This document shows positions 1 through 13,989 of a DNA stretch of 64,000 nucleotides, piece after piece. A program made the translations under genes and the position numbers. The stretch is from Myxococcales bacterium (GTDB lineage: Bacteria; Myxococcota_A; Polyangia; Fen-1088): positions 11,826 to 75,825 of the forward strand of contig PLNW01000092.1 of the NCBI GenBank assembly GCA_003142855.1, given 5' to 3'. The stretch's first letter is position 1. Every line of letters starts with the position of its first letter. The notes beneath the pieces are model-generated. The model was not told where the DNA came from. It made no database searches and saw only the letters and a program-made list of their open reading frames with translations.

Positions 1-578
1 ACCTGGGGCCGGCCGTCGTTGCGGCGGTTGAGCGCCAGCGTGGTGTCGACCTTGGCGGGCTCGACCTTGGTAGGTGCCGCCGGGAAGTTGAAGTCCATGC
101 GATCGAAGCCGCCGCCCGATGCCCCGTGCCGGTATTCCAGCCCCGAGGTGGGCATGTGGCCGGTGGCCGCCATGTGCCAGGTGGAAAGAATCAGATCCGC
201 GGTCCAGCGCGGATCGCCCATGGCGTCCACGCTGGGGTTGCGCATCAGCGTGAGCGCCTTCTGCTTGCACTTGGCCACGCAGAAGTGGTCGGTCTTGGCG
301 CAGTCGGGACCGATGCACAGGTGGTCGAGCGGTCGCAGCGTGAAGGTGTAGCCCTCGGGCTTCACGTGCACGCCCTCCGGGCACAGCTTGGCGCACTCGC
401 CGCAGGCCACGCAGTCCGCCGAGCGGTTGATCTTGTACTTGCCCAGGGCATTGTGGTAGCGGTCGGGCGCGGGTCGCACCTGACGGGTCACCGCGAACTC
501 CGACTCGGCATCCGCAGCAGCGGACTGGGCCGGAACCGCCGCGGGCTCGGCTTTGGAGTTAGCGAGAGAGAAGGTCAC
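1..578 (-). CDS. 4Fe-4S ferredoxin-domain / glutamate-synthase-domain-2-like protein; N-terminal part only, gene runs off the window start
   Basis: Absent from the ORF track because it leaves the window. My reverse-strand translation from GTG 578 (TTG 581 is an alternative) reads VTFSLANSKAEPAAV...RYHNALGKYKINRSADCVACGECAKLCPEGVHV...CIGPDCAKTDHFCVAKCKQKAL...LEYRHGASGGGFDRMDF. It contains a CxxCxxCxxxCP ferredoxin motif. The start overlaps the stop of the upstream gene at 559. Confidence 0.6.
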   Translation of the reverse strand, partial: MTFSLANSKAEPAAVPAQSAAADAESEFAVTRQVRPAPDRYHNALGKYKINRSADCVACGECAKLCPEGVHVKPEGYTFTLRPLDHLCIGPDCAKTDHFCVAKCKQKALTLMRNPSVDAMGDPRWTADLILSTWHMAATGHMPTSGLEYRHGASGGGFDRMDFNFPAAPTKVEPAKVDTTLALNRRNDGRPQ

Positions 579-1956
579 CAAATGCCTCCCGTTCGACGTC
601 TTCTTTGAAAATCGCGCGCCCCACCTCGCCGCGCAGGCGCCGCACTTCGCGGATGCCCATGGCGCCCAACACCTCGAGAAGCTGCGAATGCCAGGCCGCC
701 ATGAGATTCACCATGCGTTGGACCACATAGGCGCTCTCCAGCTTCGGGGCCGCGGCCGGACAATGCTCCTGGTGGTCTGCGCTCTGCACCCCGCGACACA
801 CGCGGCAACCCAGCGACACCAGCAGAGCGGTGTCCACGGCCACCAGATCGGCGCCGCAGATGATGGCCTTGGCCATGTGCTCGGGCAAAGCGATGCCGCC
901 GGCGACGATCAACGTGATCTCGTCGCGCACGCCGGCCTTGACCAGGCGGCCGTGGATCTCGCGCATGACATCTTTGATGTGTCGTGGGCTTTCGACTCCC
1001 ACTTCGCACCCATGCAAGTCACCGCTCAGGTGGAAGACCTTCACGCCCGCCTGGCTGAGCTGCAGGATGCGCTCGGCCGCCAGCCCTTGCAGAGGCAGGC
1101 GAACCGCGACGACCAGCTTGGGATTGGCCGTCTTGGCCTTGGCAACCAGGGCCGACACTTCCGGGCCATCCACGAACTCGACCATCCGCACCTGCGGCAA
1201 CAGCGTCTGCACGCTGCCCAGTCCCTCGCTGCCAACCAACGGAACCAAGAACGGCATTTCCGCGGCCGGCGCTCCTGCCACCTCGGCCACGCGAGCCAGT
1301 GCCAGGGTCTTCAACTTCGCCGCTGTGGTCAGCCGGGCGCGCGCAAACTCCTGGCCGCCCACTTGCCAGGCGGGAATATCCAGGATAAGCGGGAGAGGCA
1401 GGTCGATCAGGTCCGCCGCCTCGCCCAGCAACTTGCCGTCATTAGAGAATGAGAGCCGCATGGGCTTGGGCCCGATGTCCACGCTGGTGCTGATGTATTC
1501 GCGACCGTGGATGCCGTCGCGGGTGGGGCGAACGATCTCGGACATGTCGGTCCAGATGGAATCGAAGCCAAAGCCATGGAAGCGGCCGCGGTAACCAGCC
1601 CCGGAAACCGGAACCCGGCCCGTGTCAGACTGGTTCCAGGTGGTGGCCATGATGTCGGGCTTCCAGTAGTCGTCGCCCATGGCCAGGAACTCGGGATTGA
1701 GCGAGATGGCCAGAATCCCCTTGGTGCAGCCCTGCACGCACGACAGGCAGGCGCGACATTCGTAGAGCGGCACAATCGAGGTCTGTGGGTCGCGGTTGTA
1801 GGCCGCTTCCTTGCGGTAGGTGTCGAACACGCAGCGGGGCTTCACGCAGTTGCTGCAGCGGGCGCAATCCTCGCGCCAGTCCACGCTTCCGTACTTGCCG
1901 ACGTGGCGAAAGCGTCCCGGCGTGGGCACTGGCTTGATATGGTACTTCTCAGACAT
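559..1956 (-). CDS. Glutamate-synthase-related FMN/Fe-S protein (GltB domain-2-like)
   Basis: 465-aa ORF. It has N-terminal Cys clusters (CARCSNCVKPRC, CRACLSCVQGC). The C-terminal segment ...LIVAGGIALPEHMAKAIICGADLVAVDTALL... resembles the FMN barrel of the glutamate synthase domain-2 family. It sits 8 nt downstream of the MetF-like gene. Confidence 0.7.
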   Translation of the reverse strand: MSEKYHIKPVPTPGRFRHVGKYGSVDWREDCARCSNCVKPRCVFDTYRKEAAYNRDPQTSIVPLYECRACLSCVQGCTKGILAISLNPEFLAMGDDYWKPDIMATTWNQSDTGRVPVSGAGYRGRFHGFGFDSIWTDMSEIVRPTRDGIHGREYISTSVDIGPKPMRLSFSNDGKLLGEAADLIDLPLPLILDIPAWQVGGQEFARARLTTAAKLKTLALARVAEVAGAPAAEMPFLVPLVGSEGLGSVQTLLPQVRMVEFVDGPEVSALVAKAKTANPKLVVAVRLPLQGLAAERILQLSQAGVKVFHLSGDLHGCEVGVESPRHIKDVMREIHGRLVKAGVRDEITLIVAGGIALPEHMAKAIICGADLVAVDTALLVSLGCRVCRGVQSADHQEHCPAAAPKLESAYVVQRMVNLMAAWHSQLLEVLGAMGIREVRRLRGEVGRAIFKEDVEREAFGDLLSR

Positions 1957-1964
1957 CGTGTGCT

Positions 1965-2849
1965 CTAGGCCAGGCGGGCTTCTTTGATCACCGCTGCGGC
2001 CAGCGGTTCACAGCCCGCGCTGTGGATGTGGATGCCGCGTACCCCGGCCATGGTCTTTGCCTTGCCTGCCACCTCGGCCGCGATGGCCACACCGGCCTGG
2101 GTCGCGTCGCCGCTGCGCAGGCGTTTGATGATGTCGTCGCTGATCGCGCTGCCCGGCCCGCTGCGCAGCTCTTCGGCTTGCGCCACGCTGGTCAGAGGCA
2201 GCACGCTGGCGATGATGGCGGCTTGCTTGTCCAGGCCCGCGGCTCGGATCGCCTTGAGCCATTCTTCAAAACCAGCCAAGTCGAAAATCGGATCGGTCAG
2301 CAGGATCTTCGCGCCCGCCGCGATCTTCTTTCTTGTTTGGGCCATGGCCAATTCCATGGGCCGGAGGTACGGATGAGCGGCTGCGGCCACTGTCAGCGCG
2401 GGCGCTGCCGGAAGCTTGGTTCCGCTGAAATCCAGCCCGGCGCTCGCCATCTTGGCCAGGGCCTGGGTCAACTGGACAGCATCCATGTCGTAGGCGCCCG
2501 CCGCTTGTGGAAATCCGCCCAGTGCCTGGTGCGCGCCCGACATGCAGAAAAAGGTCTTCACGCCGAGAGCAAAGGCGCCAAGCACGTCGGATTCCAGCGC
2601 CACGCGGTTGCGATCGCGCGTGCACAGGCTCAGCACCGGCTCGATCTTCTCCGCGGCCAGCAACGCCGCACAGGCCAAGGCCGAGCCGTGCGCCTGCTCG
2701 GCGTGGTCGCCCACGATCACGCCGTCGAGCGACGGCGGGAAGCACGCCGCCAGCTTCTTCACCGCCGCCGCATCCGTTCCATGCGGAGGAATACAGGCGG
2801 CGGTCACCACCGGTTTTCCGCTGCCCAGTTTCTCGGACAACTTACTCAT
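1965..2849 (-). CDS. Methylenetetrahydrofolate reductase-like protein (MetF family)
   Basis: Start ATG 2849 (MSKLSEKLGSGKPVV...) was chosen inside the 1965..3017 ORF. The product is 294 aa and carries the MTHFR-type motif LSLCTRDRNRVALESDVLGA. It overlaps the upstream stop by 8 nt (2842-2849). The upstream extension to 3017 would overlap the MvhD-like gene and is rejected. Confidence 0.75.
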   Translation of the reverse strand: MSKLSEKLGSGKPVVTAACIPPHGTDAAAVKKLAACFPPSLDGVIVGDHAEQAHGSALACAALLAAEKIEPVLSLCTRDRNRVALESDVLGAFALGVKTFFCMSGAHQALGGFPQAAGAYDMDAVQLTQALAKMASAGLDFSGTKLPAAPALTVAAAAHPYLRPMELAMAQTRKKIAAGAKILLTDPIFDLAGFEEWLKAIRAAGLDKQAAIIASVLPLTSVAQAEELRSGPGSAISDDIIKRLRSGDATQAGVAIAAEVAGKAKTMAGVRGIHIHSAGCEPLAAAVIKEARLA

Positions 2850-3459
2850 CGCCATCATCTTCATCTTCCAGTTGGTACGGGACATCCTCTGACAGGCCTG
2901 TGCTGTGCAACGGGTTCGGGGCCAGGGCAGACACACGCGCGACGAATTGATCGCGCACCGCCGCCACCTTCTGCCCCAGCGCCGCATCCACGCTGGCTGG
3001 GGCCGACGCTCCAGCACCCAGGGCCATGTCCTGCACCGCCGAGCCGGGCAGGTGGAACAACATCAATCGGTCTTTGCCGAGGCCAATCTCTGCCAGAAGC
3101 GAAGAAACCGCCTCAATTCGCCGACGGCAACGCTTGTTGCCTTCGTGATGGTGGCAGTTGCCTTCTTCACAGCACACAACCGCGACGGCGTGCGCACCGC
3201 CTTCAAAGGTCTTGAGAAGGTGCTCCGGCTGCAGCCGGCCCGCACAGGGAACCACCACCTCTTGCACCGGAAACGGCCAGCCGAAGTTCGGCGTCTCGGG
3301 CCGGAAGCGCTTGCCTGACGTGGGCAGGCGGCCGGCGCGCACGCTGTTCTCGCACACGAAAACTACGATCATAGAAACAGCGGCCCCGGCCGGACGCGCG
3401 TCCGCTTGCACTGTCGCCGTTTCAGCCACGAATTGAACCTTTCCGTGCCCTTCGGTCAT
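2842..3459 (-). CDS. MvhD/FlpD-like hydrogenase iron-sulfur (delta) subunit family protein
   Basis: 205-aa ORF with ...MIVVFVCENSV...VVPCAGRLQPEHLLKTFEGGAHAVAVVCCEEGNCHHHEGNKRCRRRIE..., a pattern typical of MvhD/FlpD. It has an acidic C-terminus. The start is uncertain: M1 at 3459 or the internal Met before IVVFVC. Confidence 0.7.
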   Translation of the reverse strand: MTEGHGKVQFVAETATVQADARPAGAAVSMIVVFVCENSVRAGRLPTSGKRFRPETPNFGWPFPVQEVVVPCAGRLQPEHLLKTFEGGAHAVAVVCCEEGNCHHHEGNKRCRRRIEAVSSLLAEIGLGKDRLMLFHLPGSAVQDMALGAGASAPASVDAALGQKVAAVRDQFVARVSALAPNPLHSTGLSEDVPYQLEDEDDGDE

Positions 3460-3699
3460 CTAATAGAGAACCGAGAGACACTGAACGGGTAACAGTAGCC
3501 GGAGGGTCATAACGCCCGGACTTACGGGTCGGGCGGAGCCATGTGAAGTGTACTTTCATAGCGGCCACGAGGTTGGGCAAAGTAGACGAACCGGGCGTCG
3601 TCTGTCTACAGGGACGGAGTGACTGTTTCACTTTTTCGAGTGACTTCAACTGAGCCAAACCACGGCCGAGGCAGTATTTACGGTCAATTCACTTGTCAG

Positions 3700-3777
3700 T
3701 TACGCAATGGAAACAAACGCAATCATTGCGTCGGATTTTTGCGACTTGACGCGGTGCCTGTTTACGCAAAGGAAACA
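3700..3777. promoter_or_regulatory. Candidate operator region: two 16-nt direct repeats plus a perfect 7-1-7 palindrome in an AT-richer intergenic island
   Basis: TTACGCAATGGAAACA (3700-3715) and TTACGCAAAGGAAACA (3762-3777) match at 15 of 16 positions and are 62 bp apart. ACGCAAT-C-ATTGCGT lies at 3717-3731. The region is upstream of the mvhD-metF operon and visibly less GC-rich than its surroundings. Confidence 0.3.
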
Positions 3778-3849
3778 TTTAAGTCACACGCCAGACACAA
3801 ACAGGCTGCGGCGCGTAGCAAAGCGTGGTTGGGTCGAATAGCCCACTTG

Positions 3850-4368
3850 CTAGCGACGGCCGCGGCTGCGTATGGTCTGGGCCAGACTGCGGAAACGCTT
3901 GGCTTCGGCCGGCACGGCGGCCTCGCCCCGCTCGACCGCCTGCAACGCCTCATCAGGACGCCCGGCCTCCAGCAGCGCCACGCCTAGATCCCAGTACGAG
4001 TCCGCCCATTGTGGCGCCAGTGCGATGGCGCGTTCTAGGCTTTGCACGCCTTCGTCCAGGCGGCCCAGGCGCGCGAGCGCCAGACCCAGCCCCTTGCAGG
4101 CGTAGGCGTGGTCGGGCTTGAGAGCGAGGGCTCGACGGCAATGCGCCTCAGTGGTGAGGTAGTCGCCCAGGAAGAAGCAAACGAAACCACCCAGGTCGAG
4201 CAGTGTCAGATTCTCGGGCGCCAGGGCGAGACCCTGATTGATCTTTTCCCGCGCGTCGCCCAGCGCGTGCTCCTCGATGGCGGTGCGGGCCTGCTGGATG
4301 ATGGTGTCGACCTCGGCCGTGGGCGGGGCGGCCTCGGCAGAGGCGCCCGCGGACTCGCCGCTGGTCAT
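3850..4368 (-). CDS. TPR-repeat protein, translationally coupled to rSAM/SPASM enzyme 1
   Basis: 172-aa ORF with TPR-like units (...AHCRRALALKPDHAYACKGLGLALARLGRLDEGVQSLERAIALAPQWADSYWDLGVALLEAGRPDEAL...). An ATGA start/stop overlap with the upstream gene lies at 4365-4368. Confidence 0.7.
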   Translation of the reverse strand: MTSGESAGASAEAAPPTAEVDTIIQQARTAIEEHALGDAREKINQGLALAPENLTLLDLGGFVCFFLGDYLTTEAHCRRALALKPDHAYACKGLGLALARLGRLDEGVQSLERAIALAPQWADSYWDLGVALLEAGRPDEALQAVERGEAAVPAEAKRFRSLAQTIRSRGRR

Positions 4369-5531
4369 GGTTTGCCCCCGGCGGCCGAGGCGGCCCCAGC
4401 CGCACGGCCGTCAAAGTAGCGCACCTCATCTTCGGTGGGCGCCTCGGCCAGCAGTTCAAAGCGCCGGTGTTTGACCACCTGGTGGTAGAAACAGTTTTCG
4501 TTCCCGATTCCGCCCTGAGCGTAGGTGGCCCAACTGCAACCGCCGCGGCACACGTCGCGATAGCGACAGACACGGCAGAACCCGCCCAGCTGATCCTCTT
4601 TGAAAAGCCGGTTGTACGCGAATGCATCCGCGCGGTTCCAGATGTCGCGCAGGCTCTGCCTGCGCACGTTGCCCTCGATGAAACGGGCCTCGCCGAGCAT
4701 CGACGAGGGCAGCGAGAGACACCCCTTCACGTCTCCGCCGCTCTCGATCCCGATCACCTGGCAGCCAGCTCGACAGCCCAGCCAGAAGGGCAAGGCCGTG
4801 TCGGCATCGCGCAGGTCGGGCTCGGGGTTGCCGAAGTAGCCGATGTCGTCGCTGGGATAGACTTTGAATTCAGGGCAGCTGATCCGGCACAACTCCGCGA
4901 TCTGGGGCACCAGCCACAACAGATCTTCGGGCGGCGAAACCATGTCTTTGTGCTCGCCCATGTTCCCGGTGGCGGTGGCGAACTGCAACTGCCAGGCGAA
5001 CACGCGGTGATCCATCAAGAATTGCCGCAACGACTTGAGCTGGCCCTGATTGATTCGGTTGATGGTGGTGTTCACCGCCACGGGCAAGCCAGCCGCCACG
5101 CTGAGATCGATGGCGCGTACCACCTTCACGAAGGAGCCGGGAGCCCGAAATTCGTCATGCTCTTTTTCGAAGCCGTCGATGCTGAAGGCCGCGCCACACA
5201 GCCCGGCCTTCTGCGCCTGATCGATATGTTTGGTCGACCAGGTGAGACCGTTGGAAATTAGGTTGACCCGCGCGCCCAGCTCGACCAGTCGCCGACCCAC
5301 CTCGTGCCAGCCCGGGTACATCGTGGGCTCGCCGCCGCTCAGGGTTATGCGCCGGCACCCAAGCTCCACCAGCTCGCCGGCCACGCGCATGCACTCGTCG
5401 AGCGACAGCTCGTCCGGCCGCTTGCTGCCGGCGATGGAGCCGCAGTGCTTGCACCGCAGGTTGCACGCCAGGGTCAATTCCCACACGCAAGCGCGCGGGA
5501 AGAACCCGACTCGCTGCAGGATTTCAATCAC
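4365..5531 (-). CDS. Radical SAM / SPASM-domain enzyme (cassette 1)
   Basis: 388 aa with a GTG start. It has the CxxxCxxC cluster ELTLACNLRCKHCGS and GGEP (LSGGEPTMYP). The C-terminal auxiliary-cluster Cys pattern is GCRAGCQVIGIESGGDVKGC...GGFCRVCRYRDVCRGGC, i.e. CX2CX5CX3C as in SPASM domains. It starts 17 nt downstream of the repeat-lipoprotein gene. Confidence 0.9.
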   Translation of the reverse strand: MIEILQRVGFFPRACVWELTLACNLRCKHCGSIAGSKRPDELSLDECMRVAGELVELGCRRITLSGGEPTMYPGWHEVGRRLVELGARVNLISNGLTWSTKHIDQAQKAGLCGAAFSIDGFEKEHDEFRAPGSFVKVVRAIDLSVAAGLPVAVNTTINRINQGQLKSLRQFLMDHRVFAWQLQFATATGNMGEHKDMVSPPEDLLWLVPQIAELCRISCPEFKVYPSDDIGYFGNPEPDLRDADTALPFWLGCRAGCQVIGIESGGDVKGCLSLPSSMLGEARFIEGNVRRQSLRDIWNRADAFAYNRLFKEDQLGGFCRVCRYRDVCRGGCSWATYAQGGIGNENCFYHQVVKHRRFELLAEAPTEDEVRYFDGRAAGAASAAGGKP

Positions 5532-5548
5532 GAGGGTGTTCTACCTGA

Positions 5549-6412
5549 CTAGTTCTTAGTCGGCATGGGCGCCATGTAGAGCGGCATCGGCCCCAGGCCG
5601 GCGTCCTGCTTCGGCTGCGGCGCTGAGTACCTCATAGGAAGCCCCGCGTCCGGCATCGTCGCCATGTAGAGAGCCACTGCGCCGCCGAGGTCTTTCTGCC
5701 CGGCGTCCGGCATCACCGCCATGTACTTCGTGGTAAGCCCGGCATCGGGGCCTGGGCTTCCCGCATCCGGCGAGATCGCCATGTACAGAGGATAAATCCC
5801 CGTCATTCCGCCCGCCCCTGTGGCTCCGCCCCCGCCCGACATGCCCGCCATGCCCATGTAGGCGGTAATCCCGCCGCCCCCAACAGTGCCAGGCACCGTT
5901 GCTCCCCCCTTCCCGGTCACTCCGCCTGTTCCCGTCGCTCCCCCCGCGAGCGTCATGCCCGCCATGCCCATATAGACGGTAATCCCGCCCCCTCCAACAG
6001 AGCCAGGCACCGTTGTTCCCCCCTTCCCGGTCACTCCGCCAGTCCCCGTCGCTCCCCCCGCGAACGTCATGCCCGCCATGCCCATGTATAGAGGAACCGC
6101 TGTCATTCCGCCTGCCCCTGTCGCTCCGCCTGGCCCCGTGGCTCCGCCTGCCCCTGTGGTTCCGCCCGCACCGGTCTCTCCGCCGGAGCCCGTCATGCCC
6201 GCCATGGCCATGTACACGGCAATCGCGCCGCCCCCAGCAGAGCCGGCCTGGGCGGATGAAGTATCCGCAGAGCCATCCTGACTGGCGTTCAGCGAGGTAT
6301 CGCCGCAGCCCACCAGCGCGAGCCCGATCCCCATCGAGGCAGGCACCACCACATAACGAACCGTATCCCTGAGGAAAATATGAATGCGCTCTCGGATGTC
6401 TTTCTCTCTCAT
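5549..6412 (-). CDS. Gly/Met-rich repeat lipoprotein with 8 Tyr-Met motifs; putative rSAM substrate (cassette 1)
   Basis: 287 aa. An AAGGAG SD lies 7 nt upstream of ATG 6412. The N-terminus is MREKDIRERIHIFLRDTVRYVVVPASMGIGLALVGC, with lipobox L-V-G-C. The body carries VYMAMAGM, LYMGMAGM, VYMGMAGM, AYMGMAGM, LYMAISPD, KYMAVMPD, LYMATMPD and LYMAPMP. There is no Cys after the lipobox. Confidence 0.75.
   Translation of the reverse strand: MREKDIRERIHIFLRDTVRYVVVPASMGIGLALVGCGDTSLNASQDGSADTSSAQAGSAGGGAIAVYMAMAGMTGSGGETGAGGTTGAGGATGPGGATGAGGMTAVPLYMGMAGMTFAGGATGTGGVTGKGGTTVPGSVGGGGITVYMGMAGMTLAGGATGTGGVTGKGGATVPGTVGGGGITAYMGMAGMSGGGGATGAGGMTGIYPLYMAISPDAGSPGPDAGLTTKYMAVMPDAGQKDLGGAVALYMATMPDAGLPMRYSAPQPKQDAGLGPMPLYMAPMPTKN
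5840..6090. repeat. 114-bp in-frame tandem repeat (about 2.2 units) inside the cassette-1 lipoprotein gene
   Basis: CATGCCCGCCATGCCCATRTA recurs at 5840, 5954 and 6068, a period of 114 nt (38 aa: YMGMAGMT[LF]AGGATGTGGVTGKGG[AT]TVPG[ST]VGGGGIT). A diverged copy lies at 6194. Confidence 0.8.
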
Positions 6413-6958
6413 GATCGGCTCCTTGCGCTACCGAGTGACTACTTGCGACGTTCCGCTCTCCCGAGAACAGCAAGTGTCATGCCACGGACTTTCAGCCTGC
6501 ACGGGACAGGCAAGTCCTCATAATAGCACGTGCGCCGAGGCCTTCCCCGGTGCTTTCTATGAAGCTCGTGGCAGCGTCGTCTCAGATTTCTGAGGCGATG
6601 CCCGGATGTGAATCACCCGCCAACGCGATCCGTCGCGCTCCGGTCTATGGCTACCTAGCCGCCGGAGCCGCCGCTGGGTACTCCCCGGCCAGCATCCCGT
6701 AGATGCGCGAGCTGCGGAAATGGTTGCGCAGCCACACGTATCACGGATGAGAAGCCTCTGGGTCCGGATCGGATCGATGCGCGGCATGTCTTCTCCAGTT
6801 GGCGGTGCGAAAGGCATTCGATCCCCGACCGCGTCGGGGTGTCAAACAACGCCGTCCCGCGCCCAGTGAGCCAGAAGTGAACGCCCCTGCTACTGGAAGG
6901 GTTGAGCGGCGCGAGGGCGCAGCGTGAACCGGCGAGCTTTGACCTCGGAGGAGTCACC

Positions 6959-8572
6959 ATGAAACGATACTTCGCAGCACAACGGTTTCGCACGGGGTTG
7001 CAGAACAAGCTGGGCCTGAGCGGGCTCGCTTCGCTTCTGTTGGTCGCGGTCCTGGCTGGGTGCTCTTCCTCGAAGGCGACGGGCGCTTCAGGCGGCAGCG
7101 GGGCCGGTACAAGCGGCACCACCGGGGCCAGCAGCAGTGGGGGACAGACCACCATCGGCGGTGTCACGAGTATTGCGAGCGCTGCGGGAGGATCGAGCGG
7201 CCAGGGTGGAACGACTGCCGCGATGGGAGGCACCACGGCTGTTGGGGGCACCACAGTCGGTGGGTCGACTACGGCAAGTGGCGGCACGAACGGCGGCGGT
7301 GCAACTGGTGGCGGCGCAACGGCCGTCAACAGCGCCACGGCGGGTAGCAGCGCAACGGCCGGCAGCAGCGCAACTGCCGGCAGCAGCGCGACCGCCGGCA
7401 GTGGCGCAATGGAAAGTGGCGGCACTGCGAGTGGCGGGCGCACGACGACCAGGAGCGGCGGGCTTGTGGCCGGTGGCACTACGTCCGGCGGAGGGACCAC
7501 GAGCTCAGGTGGTACGTCCAGCAACGGTGGAACGGCAGGCACAAGCCGCCCCGACGCTGGCGCAGACGCGGCTGCGGGTGTCGCTTCGCCCGATGCGCGC
7601 GGTGGCGGGGGCGCCGGAGCCGGAGGAACGGCCGGAACAGGGGGAACCGTGGCCGGCGGCACAGGCGTAGCCAGTTTCCACTGCGTGAACTGGGCCGACA
7701 ACCGGGACAACTTCGTCGACGGACATCTCCTCATGTCCGGGATCACTTCAGACACGGACACCTATGACGGCGTCACGACCAAGGCCAACATCGTCGTGGG
7801 CGCCTTCGTCGATCTGTTGCAGGCCAATTCCTTCCGCATGCCCATCAACGAGCCGACCGCTCTCGACCCCTGGTGGAATTCGTACAAGGCCGCCATCGAC
7901 GTCGGCATCGCCAAGGGAATGAAAGTGATCATTGGCTTCTGGGCGAAGGACAAGAACATTGGCAAGCCAGTCGACAACACCCGCTGGTACGCCATGTGGA
8001 AGGTCGTGATTGATGCCTACGTGAGCAATCCGCTCGTGTTCTACGATATCCACAACGAGCCGCACGGATTCACGCCCGCGCAGTGGATCACTCAGGTCAA
8101 TGGCTGGCTGGCGCAGTTCCCCAACGTGCCCAGGCAACAGATCATCGTGGCAGGCAGCGGCTGGGACGACAACGTCGCAAATGTGGCCAGTTCCTGGCCC
8201 GATCTGATGATGGAGATTCACAACTACGCGAACAACGGCCCGACGACCCAGGCAGGGTGGAAATCCAACCTGCTCAACCGCCTGGGCAACGCTGTCAGCC
8301 GCACCATTGTCGGCGAGTGGGCGGGCCAGTTGAACGAGGACTTCACCACCGGGATCGATGGCAACGCAGACAAGTCCTTTATCGTCGGCACGGCCAACAC
8401 AATCTATGACAACAAGATGGGAAGCTGCTGGTGGGCAGGCGCGTTCGCCCCGAGTGGAGGTACTTCGGGCTCCAGCCTGCTGGTTCAGAAGGGGACCGGA
8501 GACACCATGACCTTCACCGCCCAGGGTCCAGCCGCCCTCACCTACATTCAGCATTCGTGGGGCCTCAATTGA
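6959..8572 (+). CDS. Lipoprotein glycoside hydrolase family 5 (cellulase-like) with a long G/S/T/A-rich linker
   Basis: ATG 6959 is preceded by GGAGGA. The signal and lipobox read LLLVAVLAGCSSS, followed by a low-complexity linker of about 230 aa. The catalytic domain has YDIHNEPHG (acid/base NEP) and IVGEWAG (nucleophile). Confidence 0.8.
   Translation: MKRYFAAQRFRTGLQNKLGLSGLASLLLVAVLAGCSSSKATGASGGSGAGTSGTTGASSSGGQTTIGGVTSIASAAGGSSGQGGTTAAMGGTTAVGGTTVGGSTTASGGTNGGGATGGGATAVNSATAGSSATAGSSATAGSSATAGSGAMESGGTASGGRTTTRSGGLVAGGTTSGGGTTSSGGTSSNGGTAGTSRPDAGADAAAGVASPDARGGGGAGAGGTAGTGGTVAGGTGVASFHCVNWADNRDNFVDGHLLMSGITSDTDTYDGVTTKANIVVGAFVDLLQANSFRMPINEPTALDPWWNSYKAAIDVGIAKGMKVIIGFWAKDKNIGKPVDNTRWYAMWKVVIDAYVSNPLVFYDIHNEPHGFTPAQWITQVNGWLAQFPNVPRQQIIVAGSGWDDNVANVASSWPDLMMEIHNYANNGPTTQAGWKSNLLNRLGNAVSRTIVGEWAGQLNEDFTTGIDGNADKSFIVGTANTIYDNKMGSCWWAGAFAPSGGTSGSSLLVQKGTGDTMTFTAQGPAALTYIQHSWGLN
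7328..7399. repeat. 18-bp x4 in-frame tandem repeat encoding (S/N)SATAG in the GH5 linker
   Basis: aacagcgccacggcgggt / agcagcgcaacggccggc / agcagcgcaactgccggc / agcagcgcgaccgccggc. Confidence 0.8.
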
Positions 8573-8647
8573 GCTGACAGCCATTCGCGTCGGCTGTGAA
8601 AGGGCAGCCCCTCGCGCTGAACAAGAGTACAATGTTGTTCCTGGGCC

Positions 8648-9406
8648 ATGAAGGAACACGAGATCCGGCAGCGCATCGAGGGCTTCCTCAAGCGAACTGC
8701 GCGCGAGTTAGTGGTGCCGGCATCGATGGGTCTGGGCCTGGCGCTGGTCGGGTGCGACCATACTGGGATCAAGGTCGCGCGGGACGCAGCGGCTGAAACG
8801 GCCCAGTCCGTCGCGCCCGACGCGGCAGACGCGATGCTGACGAGGGATAGCGCTGCCAATGTCCCGGACGTGGCCAACCCGCGGGACTTCGGCATCAACG
8901 ATGACAGGCCCGCCCTCGATGCGTTCAAAGCAGACCTGCCTAGGCTGATCATTCCGTACGGGGTCCGCATAGAGCCGGACGCGAGCGTGGACGCGGCTGC
9001 CCCGAACGCGGATGCCCCGGACGCGGATGCAGGCGCCGCGGACGCGGAGGTTCGCGCCGTGGACTCTGGTCGCGACGCAGGCAAAGCTGACCTGCCTGCG
9101 ATCTTGCCGCCCTACATGCCGCCCTACATGCCTGCGCCCCTGCCCGATGCTGCGCAGGATCTTTCGGCAGTCATTGTCCCGTACATGGTGCCACCGCCCT
9201 ACATGGCGCCGGTCTTCGGCCCGCCTCCGCTGCCCCCGGATCCACCGCCACAGGCGCCGGAGCCGCCACCACCGCCGCCGCCACCACCGCCCTACCTGGC
9301 GCCGGTCTTCGATGCTGGCCAGGACTTGCCACGACCCATTCCCGGATACGTCGTCCCCCCACTGGCCCCATCACCGACGGTTCCGCCAGCCAAGGCACCC
9401 AAGTAG
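8648..9406 (+). CDS. Pro/Asp/Ala-rich repeat lipoprotein with P-Y-M motifs; putative rSAM substrate (cassette 2)
   Basis: 252 aa. The N-terminus MKEHEIRQRIEGFLKRTARELVVPASMGLGLALVGC is homologous to cassette 1 (24 of 37 identical by eye). The C-terminal part has PPYMPPYMPAP, VPYMVPPPYMAPV, PPYLAPV, PGYVVPP and a run of 10 Pro. There is no Cys after the lipobox. Confidence 0.75.
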   Translation: MKEHEIRQRIEGFLKRTARELVVPASMGLGLALVGCDHTGIKVARDAAAETAQSVAPDAADAMLTRDSAANVPDVANPRDFGINDDRPALDAFKADLPRLIIPYGVRIEPDASVDAAAPNADAPDADAGAADAEVRAVDSGRDAGKADLPAILPPYMPPYMPAPLPDAAQDLSAVIVPYMVPPPYMAPVFGPPPLPPDPPPQAPEPPPPPPPPPPYLAPVFDAGQDLPRPIPGYVVPPLAPSPTVPPAKAPK

Positions 9407-9439
9407 GCCGCAAGCCGTGGCAACGGCCAGGAGCCATCG

Positions 9440-10573
9440 GTGCTGGAAGTTCTGAGGCGGGCCGGCATCGCCCCGCGCGCCTGCGCGTGGGAGCTGACCT
9501 TGGGGTGCAACCTGCGCTGCCGACACTGTGGCTCGGCGGCAGGTCCGCGCCGCTCCGACGAGCTGACCCTGGAAGAATGCCTGCGCGTGGCCGACGAGCT
9601 GGGCGCCCTGGGATGCCAGCGCGCCACGCTCACCGGGGGCGAGCCCACGCTCTACCCGGACTGGGACAAGGTGGGCCGGCGCCTGGCCCAGCACATTGCC
9701 GAGGTCAGCTTGATCTCCAACGGTTGGGCATGGACCGCCCGCCATGCCCAGCAGGCCGCGCAGGCCGGTTTGCGTGGTGTCGCTTTCAGCCTCGACGGGC
9801 TGGAAAAGGAGCATGACTGCTTCCGCGCCGAGGGTTCGTTCCGGCGCGTGGTCGAGGCGGTGAAGCACACCCTGGCCGCCGGCCTGCCGGTGGGCATCAA
9901 CACGACGATTCACCGCCTCAACACCCGCCAGCTTCCCCAGTTGCGCCAATTTCTCATCGACATCGGCGTGCGCACCTGGCAATTGCAGTTCGCCATCGCC
10001 ACGGGCTACATGGCCGAAAATCGCGACCTGGTGGCGCCGCCCGAGGAGCGGCTGTGGCTGATTCCGCAGATCGCGGAAATGTGCCGTGCCAGCGACAACC
10101 GCATCAAAGTCTACGCCAGCGACCACATCGGCTACTTCGGCAAGCCCGAGCGCGACCTGCGCACCGGTGACACCTCCATGCCGTTCTGGCTGGGCTGCCG
10201 CGCCGGCTGCCATGTCATCGGCATCGAGAGCAACGGCAACGTGAAGGGCTGCCTGTCGCTGCCTTCGCAGGTGCAGGGCGAGAGCCGCTTCGTCGAGGGC
10301 AACCTGCGCCAGAGCAATCTGCGCGAGATCTGGAACCGCAAGGGCGCCTTCGCCTACAACCGCGAATTCCGTATCGAGCAACTGGGAGGCTTCTGCGCCG
10401 TATGCCGCTTCCGCGACATCTGTCGGGGCGGCTGCACCTGGACCATGTACGCCGAATCACCCACGCTGGCCGCGGGTAATCCGCACTGTTTCTACCACCA
10501 GGCCGTCAAGCACGGCCGCAGCGACCTGCTCGACGAAGAGCCCACGGCAGAGGAAAAGGCCTTCTTCGGCTAG
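9440..10573 (+). CDS. Radical SAM / SPASM-domain enzyme (cassette 2), paralog of 4365..5531
   Basis: 377 aa. GTG 9440 has an AGGAG SD 6 nt upstream. Motifs are ELTLGCNLRCRHCGS, LTGGEPTLYP and GCRAGCHVIGIESNGNVKGC...GGFCAVCRFRDICRGGC. It is roughly 55-65% identical to the cassette-1 enzyme by eye across the full length. Confidence 0.9.
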   Translation: MLEVLRRAGIAPRACAWELTLGCNLRCRHCGSAAGPRRSDELTLEECLRVADELGALGCQRATLTGGEPTLYPDWDKVGRRLAQHIAEVSLISNGWAWTARHAQQAAQAGLRGVAFSLDGLEKEHDCFRAEGSFRRVVEAVKHTLAAGLPVGINTTIHRLNTRQLPQLRQFLIDIGVRTWQLQFAIATGYMAENRDLVAPPEERLWLIPQIAEMCRASDNRIKVYASDHIGYFGKPERDLRTGDTSMPFWLGCRAGCHVIGIESNGNVKGCLSLPSQVQGESRFVEGNLRQSNLREIWNRKGAFAYNREFRIEQLGGFCAVCRFRDICRGGCTWTMYAESPTLAAGNPHCFYHQAVKHGRSDLLDEEPTAEEKAFFG

Positions 10574-11802
10574 CCGCCCGCCTCGGCGGCGTAGTCGTCC
10601 AGCAGCTCCTCCATTCGTGCGAAGACCTGGACCATGGTGTCCTCGTCGGGCAGAAGCGTGATGCGGAAGTGATCGCGGTAGGGAACGTTGAAGCTGGTGC
10701 CCGGGGCCACCAGCACGTGTTTGCGTTCCAGCAAGTCGAGCGCGAATTTCTGGTCGTCGAAATTCGGCAGCTTGCTGGTGTCCACCCGCACAAAGGCGTA
10801 CATGGCCCCGCGGGGCGGGACCACCGACAGATACTTGCTGCGTTTGCAGCCGTCCAGAACTGCCGCGCGCGTCTGGAACAGGCGACCGCCCGGCCGCACC
10901 AGATCGCGAATCGACTGGTAGCCGCCCAGAGCGGTCTGCACGGCCCACTGGCCCACAACATTGGAGCACAGCCGCAGCGACATGATGGTGTCTAGTCCCA
11001 TCAGGTATTCGCGCGCGTGGTCCTTCTCGCCTGAGAAACTGAGCCAGCCCACGCGAAAGCCGCAGGCCCGATACACCTTGGACAAGCCGGAGAAAGTCCC
11101 GCACAGGGTGTGCCTGGCCAGGGTGGCCACCGGCGTGTACTCGGCGCCCTCGTAGGTCATCTGGTCGTAGATCTCGTCGGAGAACACCACCAGGTCGCGC
11201 GACTCGGCGATGTCGACCATCTTGGCCAGCACCTCGCGTGGATAGACCGCCCCGGTCGGGTTGTTGGGCGAGATGATGACCATGGCGCGCGTCCGCGGTG
11301 TCACCAGGCGCGCAAGTTTGTCGAGGTCAGGCAGCCAGTTGTTTTCAGGCGGGCAGGGGTAGTGCACCGCCGTGCCGTCGGCCAGATGGGTGGCTGCGGT
11401 CCACAGGGGATAGTCGGGGCTGGGCACCAAGACCTCGTCCCCTTGGTTGAGCAAAGCGCGCAGCGAGAACAGGATCAGCTCGCTCACCCCGTTGCCCATG
11501 AAGACATCGTCCGCGTTGGCGTCCATGATCCCGCGGCTCTGCTGCTGCATCACCACCGCCTCGCGGGCCGAGAAAATTCCCTTCTGGTGGCAATAGGGTT
11601 CGGCGTCGCGCAGGTTCTCGATCATCGCCAAGCGCATGGTTTCGGGCGCACGAAACCCGAAGGCGCCGGGATTGCCGATGTTCAGCTTCACGATCTCGTG
11701 CCCCGCCTTTTCCAACTCGGCGGCCCGACGCGCCAGCGGACCACGGATCTCGTAGCGGACGTTGGCAAGTTGGGAGCTGGCTTGAATTCGCGTCGGGGAC
11801 AT
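10570..11802 (-). CDS. alaA: PLP-dependent aminotransferase class I/II, AlaA (YfbQ)-like alanine aminotransferase
   Basis: 410 aa. The N-terminus ...NVRYEIRGPLARRAAELEKAGHEIVKLNIGNPGAFGF...GNGVSELI...SPNNPTGAVY...SGLSKVYRACGFRVGW... is collinear with E. coli AlaA as I recall it. The stop overlaps the convergent rSAM stop in the palindrome CTAG at 10570-10573. Confidence 0.85.
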   Translation of the reverse strand: MSPTRIQASSQLANVRYEIRGPLARRAAELEKAGHEIVKLNIGNPGAFGFRAPETMRLAMIENLRDAEPYCHQKGIFSAREAVVMQQQSRGIMDANADDVFMGNGVSELILFSLRALLNQGDEVLVPSPDYPLWTAATHLADGTAVHYPCPPENNWLPDLDKLARLVTPRTRAMVIISPNNPTGAVYPREVLAKMVDIAESRDLVVFSDEIYDQMTYEGAEYTPVATLARHTLCGTFSGLSKVYRACGFRVGWLSFSGEKDHAREYLMGLDTIMSLRLCSNVVGQWAVQTALGGYQSIRDLVRPGGRLFQTRAAVLDGCKRSKYLSVVPPRGAMYAFVRVDTSKLPNFDDQKFALDLLERKHVLVAPGTSFNVPYRDHFRITLLPDEDTMVQVFARMEELLDDYAAEAGG

Positions 11803-11888
11803 TGTGACCTCGGCGGAAATCTCCCAGAAACCTGCGCCGCGCGCCAGTGCCGAGAACGCGATCAGATGCCGCGTTCAGCTAGGTGAGG

Positions 11889-12968
11889 CTAGCGCTGAAT
11901 GACGGTGGTATCAGCCATCTGGAAACAGCTCGAGCCGTCGCCCGCCACCCAACGGAACACGTTGTACCAAAACTGCGGGATGTTGTAGATTTTGTCCGCG
12001 GTGTAGTTCGCGCACTGGGCTTGGGCCTGGTAGATCGAATCGCCTTTCCACTGGCTGGTGTAGGTGACCCACTCGTCGGCCCAGGCGAAGACCCGGCCAG
12101 CGCCGACCTGTTTGTGAACGCCAACCAAGGTATTGGTCTGCCACGTGCCCATGACCTGGCAATCGGCGCAAGTGATGGGGCGGCCCATGAAGACACCCAC
12201 TTGGCGGTCCGTCGAATTAAGATTGTCGACCAGCGGGCTGTCCGAGGTATTCCAACCGCCAAACGGAATCGACCCGTCGGCACAGTAGCACATATTGTTG
12301 GTACAGTCGCTCTGAACGAAAATATCCGGGCTCGGTTGGTAGGAAATCCCGAATGGCGCCAGCAATTGATTGACCGGATCGACCTCCTGCGACTGCGAGC
12401 CATAGCCGCTCATCGTAATGAGGCCGCCGCCTTTGTTCACCCAGTCAGACAGAGCACTGACCTCGTCACCGGTGAAAGTCCAAAAGCCGGTGTACTCACT
12501 GTCCTCAAGGGCCTGGAGAATGATGACGTCATACTTCTTCAAGAAGTCCGCGGTCAGCGTGAAATTCCTCGTGGACCCGACCACGTTTCCGAACAGGGCC
12601 ATGGTGGCCGTTCCCTTGGTTTGGGTGTTCATGTAGTTTTGGAAGGCATCCGTGTTGTCGCCGCCGCCACTCTGGTTGCCGTAGTGGGCGACCTTGCCCA
12701 GAGACGCGATGGTCAGGCACTGGCAGTTGCCCGCATCGTCGCAACGCCAAGGCTTGGCGTCCCAACCGGCTGGCGGGCCGGTGAAAGTGGAGCCAGCGTC
12801 CATGGCGGTGATGATGGAAATGCCGCCCCCTTGTCCGCTCTCGCCGCCCAGCCCCGTGATGGCGCCGCTTCCAATGGTTCCGCCCGAGGCCGCGACTTTG
12901 GACTGGGTGCAAGCCGCGCCCAAGAACAAGAGCAAGGTACATATGGTGGGATAATCTCTTCTCTGCAT
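11889..12968 (-). CDS. Secreted lipoprotein, function unknown
   Basis: Start ATG 12968 (MQRRDYPTICTLLLFLGAACTQS, with a lipobox) was chosen inside the 11889..13148 ORF. A short Gly-rich linker is followed by a Cys-containing globular domain (..DVIILQALED..WVNKGGGLITMSGY.. hints at a ThuA/GATase1-like fold, unverified). Confidence 0.6.
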   Translation of the reverse strand: MQRRDYPTICTLLLFLGAACTQSKVAASGGTIGSGAITGLGGESGQGGGISIITAMDAGSTFTGPPAGWDAKPWRCDDAGNCQCLTIASLGKVAHYGNQSGGGDNTDAFQNYMNTQTKGTATMALFGNVVGSTRNFTLTADFLKKYDVIILQALEDSEYTGFWTFTGDEVSALSDWVNKGGGLITMSGYGSQSQEVDPVNQLLAPFGISYQPSPDIFVQSDCTNNMCYCADGSIPFGGWNTSDSPLVDNLNSTDRQVGVFMGRPITCADCQVMGTWQTNTLVGVHKQVGAGRVFAWADEWVTYTSQWKGDSIYQAQAQCANYTADKIYNIPQFWYNVFRWVAGDGSSCFQMADTTVIQR

Positions 12969-13132
12969 GTCCGTATAATATGCAACGCCGCTCAAAGGGG
13001 AAGTGTGGGCGCGCGGTCCGACGCGCCCCAGCATGCAGCGCCAGCGTCGGTGCGCCGCACCGCCAAACGAGCCCGATTCGGCTCGACCAATCCGTGGTTG
13101 TTTGGGGCCGCAAGTCACGCTAGTCTGCCTGC

Positions 13133-13834
13133 ATGCTTCGCCAAACAATCGTGTCTTCTATGGTTGCAGCGCTGGTGGCCCTGGGCGTCTCCTATGCCTC
13201 GATCCACGCGGAGCTGTTCCGCCGTTCCGTGGACGTTCCCACCTTACTCGGGTCCACGGTGGACACGGCACGCTCGGCACTCGACCAGTCGGGATTGCTC
13301 CTGGTCGTCGCCGAGGATCGGGAAGACACGGCCACGCCGCCAGGTCAGATCTTGGCCCAGCGTCCGTTGCCTGGGTCCAAGTTGCACGTAGGCGAGCCGG
13401 TGAACGTGGTCATCGCCCGTGCACCTGCCGTGGTCAAGGTGCCGGGCGTGGTCGGCCAGCTCGTTGGTGAAGCCCGCGTGCGCTTGGAAAAGGCTCGTCT
13501 CACGGTCAGCAGTGTGGTCGAGCAGCCCCATCCCACTCTGGGCGTGGGCATGGTCATCGCGCAAAGCCTGGCCGAGGGCGCGGAGGTCCGCGCTGGCACG
13601 GGCCTCGAGCTGAAGGTGTCCAAGGGCGCGGAAGCCATCACCGTGCCCGCGGTGACCGGAAAGTCATTGTCCAAGGCCAGGGATCTTTTGACACAGGTCG
13701 GACTGACCGTCGGCCAGATCCGCCACGCCTCAGACGACGATCGCAGCCCCGGAATCGTACTCGAGCAGAAGCCCGCCGCCAGCCAGACCCTGGGCAAGGG
13801 TATGCCGGTGGATCTGGTCGTGAACAGCGACTAG
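13133..13834 (+). CDS. Membrane-anchored protein made of three PASTA domains, with no kinase or PBP domain
   Basis: 233 aa. It has one N-terminal TM segment (IVSSMVAALVALGVSYA). Three units of about 65 aa follow: VPTLLGSTVDTARSAL..., VPGVVGQLVGEARVRLEKARL... and VPAVTGKSLSKARDLLTQVGL.... Confidence 0.8.
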   Translation: MLRQTIVSSMVAALVALGVSYASIHAELFRRSVDVPTLLGSTVDTARSALDQSGLLLVVAEDREDTATPPGQILAQRPLPGSKLHVGEPVNVVIARAPAVVKVPGVVGQLVGEARVRLEKARLTVSSVVEQPHPTLGVGMVIAQSLAEGAEVRAGTGLELKVSKGAEAITVPAVTGKSLSKARDLLTQVGLTVGQIRHASDDDRSPGIVLEQKPAASQTLGKGMPVDLVVNSD

Positions 13835-13839
13835 CCACC

Positions 13840-13986
13840 CGTCTTGATCCGGCGCTGGAGCTGAATGGCGGGAACCAGACCCACACCGCTGCCCAGCTCC
13901 ACGTCGGCTCCGCCACGCTGTACCGCAAGCTCAAGAGCTACGGCCTCATCGGCAGCAAGCACGCGGCCCACAAGCGTGCTCACTAG
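13840..13986 (+). pseudogene. Orphan C-terminal Fis-type HTH fragment of an NtrC-family (sigma-54 activator-like) regulator
   Basis: The frame ending at TAG 13984-13986 reads RLDPALELNGGNQTHTAAQLHVGSATLYRKLKSYGLIGSKHAAHKRAH*. This matches the ...ALE.TGGN...AA..LG.SR.TLYRKLK.YGL C-terminal pattern of enhancer-binding proteins. No ATG/GTG/TTG and no AAA+ domain lies upstream in frame. Confidence 0.45.
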
Positions 13987-13989
13987 ACT

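Follow-up and report, generated by a model that had tools for sequence, protein, structure and literature searches.

Spliceotides are a class of RiPPs (peptides synthesised by ribosomes and modified after translation) that entered the literature in 2018 and was enlarged in 2022. The spliceases that act on them are radical S-adenosylmethionine (rSAM)/SPASM enzymes which excise tyramine at X-Tyr-Gly (XYG) sites. In the current analysis we have identified two cassettes resembling such systems in a stretch of 64,000 nucleotides from a Myxococcales bacterium (contig PLNW01000092.1 of assembly GCA_003142855.1), which is referred to as the window. Each cassette encodes a lipoprotein with repeated Tyr motifs, the putative precursor, followed by an rSAM/SPASM enzyme. 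Cassette A, on the minus strand, also encodes a protein with tetratricopeptide repeats (TPR), and cassette B lies on the plus strand. From sequence comparisons we consider, with a probability of about 0.58, that the cassettes are binary splicease-like systems which would turn the Tyr sites of their precursors into α-ketoamide residues before export by the Sec and lipoprotein pathway.

The mass falls by 135.06 Da (C8H9NO) on splicing, and the ketoamide is required for the inhibition of proteases by spliceotides (PMC11626197). In the binary spliceases the α-helix of the leader binds to the site that is used by the Y protein in ternary systems and activates the enzyme, and the XYG sites are reported to dock at the SAM pocket (PMC11414181). 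Spliceotides described so far are of the Nif11/NHLP type and lose their leader via PCAT exporters (PMC10885120). PlpX-like enzymes adjoining open reading frames (ORFs) rich in Tyr-Gly (YG) were mined by Scott et al. 2022 and are known from 189 genera, and 27 enzyme-substrate pairs have been confirmed (PMC10849128).

Relationship of the enzymes to tyramine spliceases

The enzymes of the two cassettes, rSAM-A and rSAM-B, have the Radical_SAM and SPASM domains of Pfam and share a sequence identity of 64% over 376 residues. An initial annotation of the window had described them as full-length paralogs of 55-65% identity by eye and had pointed to a CxxxCxxC motif together with a CX2CX5CX3C SPASM pattern. 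Both motifs (C23/C27/C30 and C319/C322/C328/C332) are confirmed and are invariant in the homologs, as are C253, C271 and C350. About 120 positions besides the Cys ligands of the Fe-S clusters are invariant among 12 diverse homologs.

Comparison with the NCBIfam models assigns to rSAM-A 241 bits with TIGR03913 and 233 bits with TIGR04103 (other families at most 130 bits), and to rSAM-B 252 bits with TIGR04103 and 251 bits with TIGR03913 (other families at most 147 bits). These two families lead all the remaining ones, among them AhbD, NirJ, PqqE, MftC, SkfB and WgkB, by about 100 bits. TIGR04103, with an equivalog cutoff of 725 bits, is named 'nif11-class peptide radical SAM maturase 3'; TIGR03913, with one of 591.75 bits, bears the name 'GDL motif peptide-associated radical SAM/SPASM maturase'. 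TIGR04103 was presumed by us to be the family of PlpX, and this was then checked by scoring PlpX, a proven tyramine splicease. The query, a machine-read sequence taken from PMC9484694 (supplement 14), scores 677 bits with TIGR04103, which is itself under the cutoff of 725, and 322 bits with TIGR03913.

PlpX aligns with rSAM-B over 361 residues at an identity of 31% (E=3e-50), and rSAM-A is also 31% identical to it. The clade of myxobacterial enzymes to which the two belong spans 29-40% identity to PlpX as a continuum. Its intermediates, 35-40% identical to PlpX, score 270-320 bits on TIGR04103 and TIGR03913 and at most 172 bits on other models. Since no member reaches the equivalog cutoff, the myxobacterial enzymes are regarded as a separate branch of the splicease superfamily. 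Judged by these scores and alignments, the window enzymes are closer to the proven spliceases than to other characterised rSAM families and are a divergent branch of the PlpX splicease superfamily. The proposal of the initial annotation, which had not considered spliceases, that this is an undescribed system with an unrecognised substrate family is not supported.

A search of PDB sequences, as well as a Foldseek search with an AlphaFold2 (AF2) model, returned only generic SPASM/twitch maturases (SkfB, PqqE, BlsE, SuiB, anSME and MoaA). These searches cannot discriminate, as the PDB holds no splicease structure. The AF2 model of rSAM-B comprises a partial TIM barrel, and its SPASM region is of low confidence. 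A literature search for TIGR04103 and TIGR03913 found nothing.

An identity as an enzyme of cofactor or heme synthesis has been considered and rejected. The window enzymes score 128-130 bits with AhbD (cutoff 500), 119-123 bits with NirJ (cutoff 515), 84-90 bits with PqqE (cutoff 381) and 117-129 bits with MftC (cutoff 265). Membership of a heme or cofactor clade, which the initial annotation had named as the outcome that would count against a role in protein modification, does not apply, judging from the values for AhbD, NirJ and PqqE (84-130 bits against cutoffs of 381-515). The ORF list and Pfam searches revealed no heme or cofactor pathway genes near the cassettes in the window.

Leader and core of the precursor lipoproteins

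Lipoproteins A and B can be aligned over residues 1-62 only (48% identity, E=3e-17), and 24 of their first 36 residues are identical as counted by hand. This bears out the earlier observation of a common N-terminus of 36 residues in otherwise different proteins. The leader of precursor A consists of a conserved amphipathic helix with the pattern M-x-[ED]-x-[ED]-I-R-x-R-I-x-x-F-L, followed by a hydrophobic stretch and then by the lipobox LVGC ending in Cys36. Residues 1-36 of precursor B form a leader and signal peptide of the same type, again with the lipobox LVGC, in which M1, E3, R7, I10, E11, F13, L14, K15, R16, A18, R19, V22-S26, G28, G30, L31, G35 and C36 are invariant among 14 homologs. 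For precursor B, AF2 predicts helical structure at residues 3-20 and disorder in the remainder.

The segment preceding the lipidation site reads R-x-VVVPASMG(I/L)GLALVG-C36, and sequence heuristics find the charged n-region, the hydrophobic h-region and the lipobox Cys of lipoproteins. A lipobox-like pattern ([LVIAM..][ASGTV][GAS]C) near position 36 is present in 45 of 46 substrates, which were collected from metagenome-assembled genomes (MAGs) of uncultured Myxococcota. The precursors are thus predicted lipoproteins and substrates of signal peptidase II. The N-terminal pattern M-x-[DE]-x-x-[MIV]-R-x-x-[IV]-x-x-[FV]-[LC] is common to short XYG peptide precursors and to the lipoproteins of classes A to E, the classes being those of the related cassettes described below. 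The lipoprotein precursors append the hydrophobic segment and the lipobox after this motif.

The core of precursor A is disordered and rich in Gly, Met and Ala, with G-x-V-A-L-Y-M-A-x-M-P-D-A-G as a typical unit. That of precursor B, also disordered, is rich in Pro, Asp and Ala with the recurring unit D-L-P-x(4)-P-Y-[GML]. Precursor A has 10 mature Tyr residues (8 YM, 1 YS and 1 YP) and precursor B has 7 (4 YM, 1 YG, 1 YL and 1 YV), which together give 12 YM, 1 YG, 1 YL, 1 YS, 1 YV and 1 YP among 17 sites. The observed numbers of YM (8/10 and 4/7) were reached by 0 of 200,000 composition-preserving shuffles of either protein; the YM motif is not due to chance. The Tyr modules quoted in the initial annotation (DAGQKDLGGAVALYM, DAGKADLPAILPPYM and others) were all found in the translations. 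Neither precursor of the window has any Cys after the lipobox. Searches of Pfam and NCBIfam gave no match for the precursors of classes A to G and I, and only the repeats of class H match a generic family, NF033662.

Conservation of the enzyme-substrate pair in Myxococcota

Hundreds of close homologs of the enzyme are available, many of them of about 545 residues with a TPR fusion at the C-terminus. Lipoprotein B has 22 homologs, all unannotated, which without exception keep the leader and the Pro-Tyr (PY) sites. In the neighbourhoods of distant enzyme homologs, an unannotated gene is always found directly upstream, the products (90, 121, 208 and 260 residues) having a similar N-terminus and short Tyr motifs.

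A scan with one genome per species yielded 78 loci (numbered with the prefix L), all of them in MAGs of uncultured Myxococcota or 'delta' lineages. The substrate gene is situated immediately upstream, at a gap of 3-75 nucleotides, in every intact locus whose enzyme is at least 57% identical. The adjacency continues, with different leaders, down to about 45% enzyme identity, and a substrate directly upstream of the enzyme is found in about 45 related loci. Orthologs of precursor A precede class A enzymes (L002, L003, L013-L018) and orthologs of precursor B precede class B enzymes (L008-L010, L019). Single MAGs hold two or three cassette classes, and a neighbour-joining tree, with its root at PlpX and PcpX, matches every enzyme clade with one substrate class only. 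Natural fusions of enzyme and substrate occur among distant members of the clade (L079-L085). Alignment of the cassette B homologs reveals that leaders and Tyr sites are under purifying selection and that the spacers drift.

This co-diversification of enzyme and substrate, together with the natural fusions, makes an incidental adjacency very unlikely. On the genomic evidence the lipoproteins and the rSAM/SPASM enzymes are genuine enzyme-substrate pairs, as the initial annotation had proposed, and the co-occurrence in other Myxococcota genomes that it had suggested looking for is found.

In the fusion proteins (e.g. L085:6001-7668) the rSAM/SPASM region is followed by a lipobox-like hydrophobic stretch (GLAPAAIVATLGLSGC) and by a tail rich in Cys, in which PEYGV/PDYGIP or CCDCEYMGP sites recur. 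The class C precursor that precedes the enzyme at L029:4742-5986 seems to be truncated or frameshifted, with no more than its C-terminal ...TLYLAQLPVPRS in frame, and might represent a pseudogene or an error of assembly. A filter-based scan found no obvious substrate with Tyr motifs within 6 kb at 14 loci (L051, L054, L056-L058, L060, L062, L065, L066, L068, L070, L071, L073 and L075). The enzymes of these loci are 45-50% identical to those of the window and at most 40% identical to PlpX. These enzymes may act on short peptides, or on substrates whose genes lie elsewhere.

TPR is adjacent or fused to the enzyme in 25 loci. Among the classified loci it is found in classes A and C and is absent from classes B, D and E. 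In class C a domain homologous to the TPR protein is fused at the C-terminus of the enzyme. The TPR domain may handle the precursor.

Tyrosine sites and their relation to the X-Tyr-Gly motif

In the 46 substrates the residue following the Tyr is Met in 49% of the sites (an 11-fold enrichment), Gly in 14%, Leu in 10% and Ser in 8%. Position -1 is occupied by Pro, Leu, Val, Lys or Arg, position +2 is Ala in 57% of the sites, and positions +3 and +5 are Pro. Cys and Trp account for about 0.1% each of the pooled mature regions. Both this context and the alignment of orthologous sites show the Tyr as a conserved, target-like residue, in line with the Tyr-centred motif that had been noticed in the window alone.

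The residue after the Tyr varies at equivalent positions. At the Tyr104 site of the cassette B family Pro-Tyr is invariant and is followed by Gly in 7 orthologs (including that of the window), by Met in 5 and by Leu in 2. Repeat lipoproteins of L074, L059 and L069 have LYAAP, KYGVP, AYGVP and LYMAP sites in register. Those of L074 read LYAAPMP, KYGVPLP, AYGVPIA, KYGVPLP and LYMAPPP, so that position +1 varies in register within one protein. The fusion proteins alternate CCDCEYMGPAP and CCECDYGLP. As Gly, Met and Leu interchange at orthologous sites, Met is not an essential partner.

Canonical XYG sites are also found in relatives of the window enzymes. At L076 and L077, enzymes 45-50% identical to those of the window adjoin short RiPP-type precursors with XYG cores, for example ...QPMYGVTMYGIEPMYGVDPGGG and, in L077, ...ECQVQPMYGVTMYGIEPMYGVDPGGG. 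Class D precursors are Gly-rich with canonical LYGIGG/VYGTGG sites, and the tree places class D in its crown as the sister of class A, the YMA class of the window. Canonical XYG substrates belong to the basal branches of the rooted tree, and the lipoproteins rich in YM are the derived ones. Tyr-Met is therefore most readily understood as a variation on the Tyr-Gly splice site, and it does not resemble a Tyr/Met reaction pair.

A group of large lipoproteins assigned to NF033662 ('acidic double-disulfide repeat', 126.7 bits) adjoins splicease-like enzymes at L055, L059, L061, L063, L067, L069 and L074 (e.g. L074:7218-8093, minus strand). They have one Y[G/A/M][A/I/V]P site in register in each repeat, and this repeat family is a candidate splicease substrate.

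Proposed mechanism

The precursor has, by its sequence and AF2, an amphipathic helix at about residues 3-20, a hydrophobic segment, the lipobox Cys36 and a long disordered core carrying 7-10 repeats of hydrophobic-Tyr-[Met/Gly/Leu/Ser]-Ala/Pro. The cytoplasmic rSAM/SPASM enzyme would engage the leader helix, which, by analogy with the binary spliceases, may bind to and activate it. The TPR protein or domain probably helps to hold the long unfolded precursor. At each Tyr a tyramine equivalent (C8H9NO, about -135.06 Da) would be excised, as suggested by the homology to PlpX and by the motif. The carbonyl of the Tyr would be joined to that of the preceding residue, which would thereby acquire the ketoamide.

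The modified precursor would then be exported by Sec, Cys36 would be lipidated and signal peptidase II (LspA) would remove the leader, as the lipobox predicts. A dedicated RiPP protease or transporter would not be needed, since the lipoprotein pathway would lipidate Cys36 and remove the leader; no gene for either was found near the cassettes in the ORF list or by Pfam. What results would be a disordered polypeptide, anchored by lipid, with several electrophilic ketoamide warheads. Considering the protease inhibition by other spliceotides, it would most plausibly act at the cell envelope, inhibiting or trapping proteases in a multivalent manner.

Alternative explanations

Several observations weigh against tyramine excision in the window. 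The canonical Gly follows the Tyr at only 1 of the 17 sites, and the 11-fold enrichment of Met at +1 could signal a changed reaction rather than mere tolerance. Compared with proven spliceases the enzymes reach an identity of only about 31%, and they fall far under the equivalog cutoffs (252 against 725 bits for TIGR04103, 251 against 592 bits for TIGR03913). Pro precedes the Tyr in 20% of the sites, including most sites of precursor B, where splicing would give an unusual α-keto-β-proline, for which no precedent was found in the literature examined. In sequence the leader helix does not significantly resemble PlpY and PcpY, the Y proteins, its best ungapped scores being matched by 1-74% of shuffles and in most comparisons by at least 12%. 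A signal peptide on a substrate that is modified in the cytoplasm poses a problem of timing, which can be resolved by speculation only.

The lack of the canonical Gly at most sites, the enrichment of Met, the low identity to PlpX and the scores under the equivalog cutoffs speak for the alternative that the pairs are genuine and the Tyr is targeted by a chemistry other than tyramine excision that evolved from a splicease ancestor, and rSAM/SPASM maturases are known to change chemistry at such divergence. The candidates are a C-C or C-O crosslink of Tyr, modification of the Tyr β-carbon, cleavage of the Tyr side chain of the ThiH/HydG type and a reaction specific for Tyr and Met. We regard this main rival as unlikely, if far from negligible. 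The interchange of Gly, Met and Leu at one orthologous Tyr site, and of Gly, Ala and Met in register within single repeat proteins, argues against the +1 residue as a partner in the reaction. Beside class A, a canonical YG class is found nested within the crown group, and the known crosslinking families (WgkB, SuiB-like, PqqE, MftC) score far under the splicease models. Both the interchange and the membership in the PlpX superfamily make the Tyr crosslinking or Met-centred chemistry suggested in the initial annotation less likely than tyramine excision. A more specific form of this alternative, to which we assign slightly less weight again, is that the crown-group enzymes have left tyramine excision for another, undescribed radical transformation at hydrophobic-Tyr-Met-Ala-Pro sites. 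If true, this would represent a new class of modified surface lipoproteins in Polyangia, with a RiPP-style leader removed by the general lipoprotein signal peptidase.

Two particular chemistries have been rejected. Maturases of the thioether-forming SPASM type (sactisynthases, ranthipeptide synthases, QhpD) and anSME are excluded by the mature regions of the window precursors, which are free of Cys, and by the 0.1% of Cys in the 46 substrates, in support of the initial argument against thioethers. A maturase forming three-residue cyclophanes does not fit either: several sites (YMG, in precursor A) have Gly as the third residue and hence no β-carbon at +2, a point already made for this sequence and upheld here. 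Positions +1 and +2 vary at orthologous sites, and XyeB, GrrM and FxsB are outside the top 25 curated matches.

It is also conceivable that the enzymes act on a small peptide or on a cofactor or heme intermediate, the lipoproteins being unmodified low-complexity envelope proteins which are adjacent by accident. The low complexity of the lipoproteins, their lack of a family assignment and a weak similarity of the enzymes to AhbD and NirJ, as in all SPASM enzymes, would agree with this. It is nevertheless highly improbable given the substrate gene upstream in all intact loci of at least 57% identity, its persistence to about 45% and in fusions, and the match of enzyme clades to substrate classes across many MAGs with several classes each. 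The AhbD, NirJ and PqqE scores given above speak against it as well, and no other conserved small ORF was seen. Least probable of all is that the cassettes are decaying or inactive paralogs, so that homology to spliceases would be uninformative on their present function. Genomes do carry multiple paralogous cassettes, and the L029 precursor looks truncated; against this stand the invariant Fe-S ligands and other enzyme positions, the purifying selection on leaders and Tyr sites, the intact reading frames and the good ribosome-binding sites.

Comparison with characterised systems

The window cassettes share with the PlpX-type spliceases the rSAM and SPASM architecture without an N-terminal RiPP recognition element, the two best curated models and the full-length identity of 31%. 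They also share an adjacent precursor gene, encoding an N-terminal leader and a core with multiple sites, and an invariant Tyr after a hydrophobic or variable X at several sites in each precursor. Canonical XYG cores occur in relatives of the window clade. In spliceases the activating helix comes from a Y protein (type I) or from the leader (type II). No Y-protein gene was noticed adjoining either cassette in the ORF list, in which no dedicated search was made, and the leader of precursor B is predicted to be helical at residues 3-20, so that the arrangement may be binary and type II-like.

They differ from PlpX-type systems in the residue after the Tyr, which is mostly Met (also Leu, Ser and Val) and only once Gly, in the coupled TPR partner of enzyme A (fused in class C), in scores under the TIGR04103 cutoff, and in their hosts, uncultured Polyangia with two to three or more paralogous classes per genome. 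In contrast to the described spliceotides, the window precursors are lipoproteins of 250-290 residues in which the leader forms the n-region of a predicted signal peptide of the signal peptidase II type. Because of the TIGR04103 scores and the departure from X-Tyr-Gly, the system is classified here as a splicease-like variant and not as a bona fide spliceotide. No link between spliceotides and myxobacterial lipoproteins was found in the literature examined, and a related myxobacterial type may be listed in Scott et al. 2022.

The sister family TIGR03913 is co-best match of the window enzymes (241-251 bits) and second-best of PlpX (322 bits), and belongs to the same clan. The window enzymes are far under its cutoff of 591.75 bits, and its profile is longer by about 100 residues (477 positions). 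No GDL-motif peptide of the TIGR03913 type was seen beside the window enzymes, and the adjacent precursors have no match to a curated precursor family.

The logic of anSME and QhpD/QhpC, in which a cytoplasmic rSAM/SPASM enzyme modifies an unfolded protein with a signal peptide before Sec export, is the same as that proposed here, and anSME is among the structural neighbours of the rSAM-B model. These enzymes differ in oxidising Cys/Ser or forming thioether links at Cys/Ser targets, where the window mature regions are Cys-free, and are related by sequence much more weakly than PlpX. The triceptide maturases XyeB, GrrM and FxsB likewise act as rSAM/SPASM enzymes on short motifs that recur and have an aromatic residue at their centre. 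They are not among the best curated matches, and the substrates of the window type, in which +2 is often Gly or Ala and +1 and +2 vary freely, differ from those with a fixed omega-X-X crosslink.

Gene organisation and neighbouring genes

The features of the two cassettes are given in Table 1. All six ORFs lie where the initial annotation had placed them, according to the ORF list with translations, and its two diverged units of lipoprotein and rSAM/SPASM enzyme are confirmed. Only these two cassettes of this type occur within the window.

Table 1. Features of cassettes A and B and of the gene between them (positions in the window)
Feature	Position	Strand	Remarks
Precursor/substrate A (lipoprotein A)	5549..6412	-	287 aa; ORF and translation; ribosome-binding site AAGGAG
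Leader of precursor A, codons 1-36	6305..6412	-	24/36 residues identical to leader B
rSAM/SPASM enzyme A (rSAM-A), splicease-like, class A clade	4365..5531	-	388 aa; Pfam, NCBIfam, PlpX alignment, tree
TPR protein	3850..4368	-	172 aa; Pfam TPR matches
GH5 gene, between both cassettes	6902..8572	+	
Precursor/substrate B (lipoprotein B)	8648..9406	+	252 aa; ORF, homologs, AF2
Leader of precursor B, codons 1-36	8648..8755	+	Residue conservation, predicted helix
rSAM/SPASM enzyme B (rSAM-B), splicease-like, class B clade	9440..10573	+	377 aa; ribosome-binding site AGGAG; no TPR partner

Precursor and enzyme genes are separated by 17 nucleotides in cassette A and by 33 nucleotides in cassette B. 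The stop codon of rSAM-A overlaps the start of the TPR gene (ATGA), by which the latter is predicted to be translationally coupled to the enzyme. Good ribosome-binding sites precede lipoprotein A and rSAM-B. Long antisense ORFs in positions 1-16000 of the window, such as an ORF of 368 residues (6655-7761, minus strand) opposite the GH5 gene, were not counted as genes, since long antisense and overlapping ORFs are by-products of the G+C content of 60-70%.

The GH5 gene had been named in the title of the initial description as flanked by the cassettes. It is a bystander: a GH5 homolog is found within 6 kb of a cassette in only 6 loci, all of them close relatives, and a part in the system has been rejected on this ground and because the GH5 of L004-L006 lies beside a different cassette class. 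That GH5 (about 7104-8417, minus strand) is 92% identical to the one in the window and adjoins a short YMAQ precursor and a TPR-fused enzyme. The comparison with the window indicates that the GH5 neighbourhood hosts different cassettes in different genomes. The N-terminal half of the window GH5 (6902-7650) has the features of a predicted lipoprotein (…LLLVAVLAGCSS…) with a linker of about 230 residues rich in Gly, Thr, Ser and Ala. The linker is similar in composition to the spacers of precursor A and has neither the leader helix nor Tyr sites.

Beyond the TPR gene, the region 559-3459 (minus strand) encodes a glutamate-synthase-like flavin mononucleotide (FMN)/Fe-S protein (559-1956), a methylenetetrahydrofolate reductase (MTHFR, 1965-3017) and an FlpD/MvhD protein (2842-3459). 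This module resembles methylene-tetrahydrofolate reductase systems of the MetF/MvhD type. In L002 and L003 the same genes adjoin the ortholog of cassette A, beyond the TPR gene.

Implications

The system looks like a well-defined and testable extension of a young RiPP class and not like a wholly new system. If the YM sites are spliced, the accepted motif would widen from X-Tyr-Gly to X-Tyr-(Gly/Met/Ala/Leu/Ser). This would matter for genome mining, which has so far proceeded via YG-rich ORFs; a screen based on YG would probably have missed the classes rich in YM. It would also bear on splicease engineering, namely the installation of β-amino acids and ketoamides and TyrEx labelling. If the chemistry is different, the pair would offer a defined entry to a new reaction, with genes and sites known and many natural variants available.

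Splicing of the YM sites would further provide a natural case of multi-site backbone splicing in full-size, envelope-bound proteins of 250-290 residues. A RiPP-style leader would be merged with a lipoprotein signal peptide, the housekeeping Sec, Lgt and LspA replacing a dedicated protease and transporter. The resulting lipid-anchored ketoamide arrays, whose P1-like position would be taken by Leu, Val, Lys, Arg or Pro, would be a possible envelope-bound defence against proteases in the uncultured Myxococcota of peat and fen.

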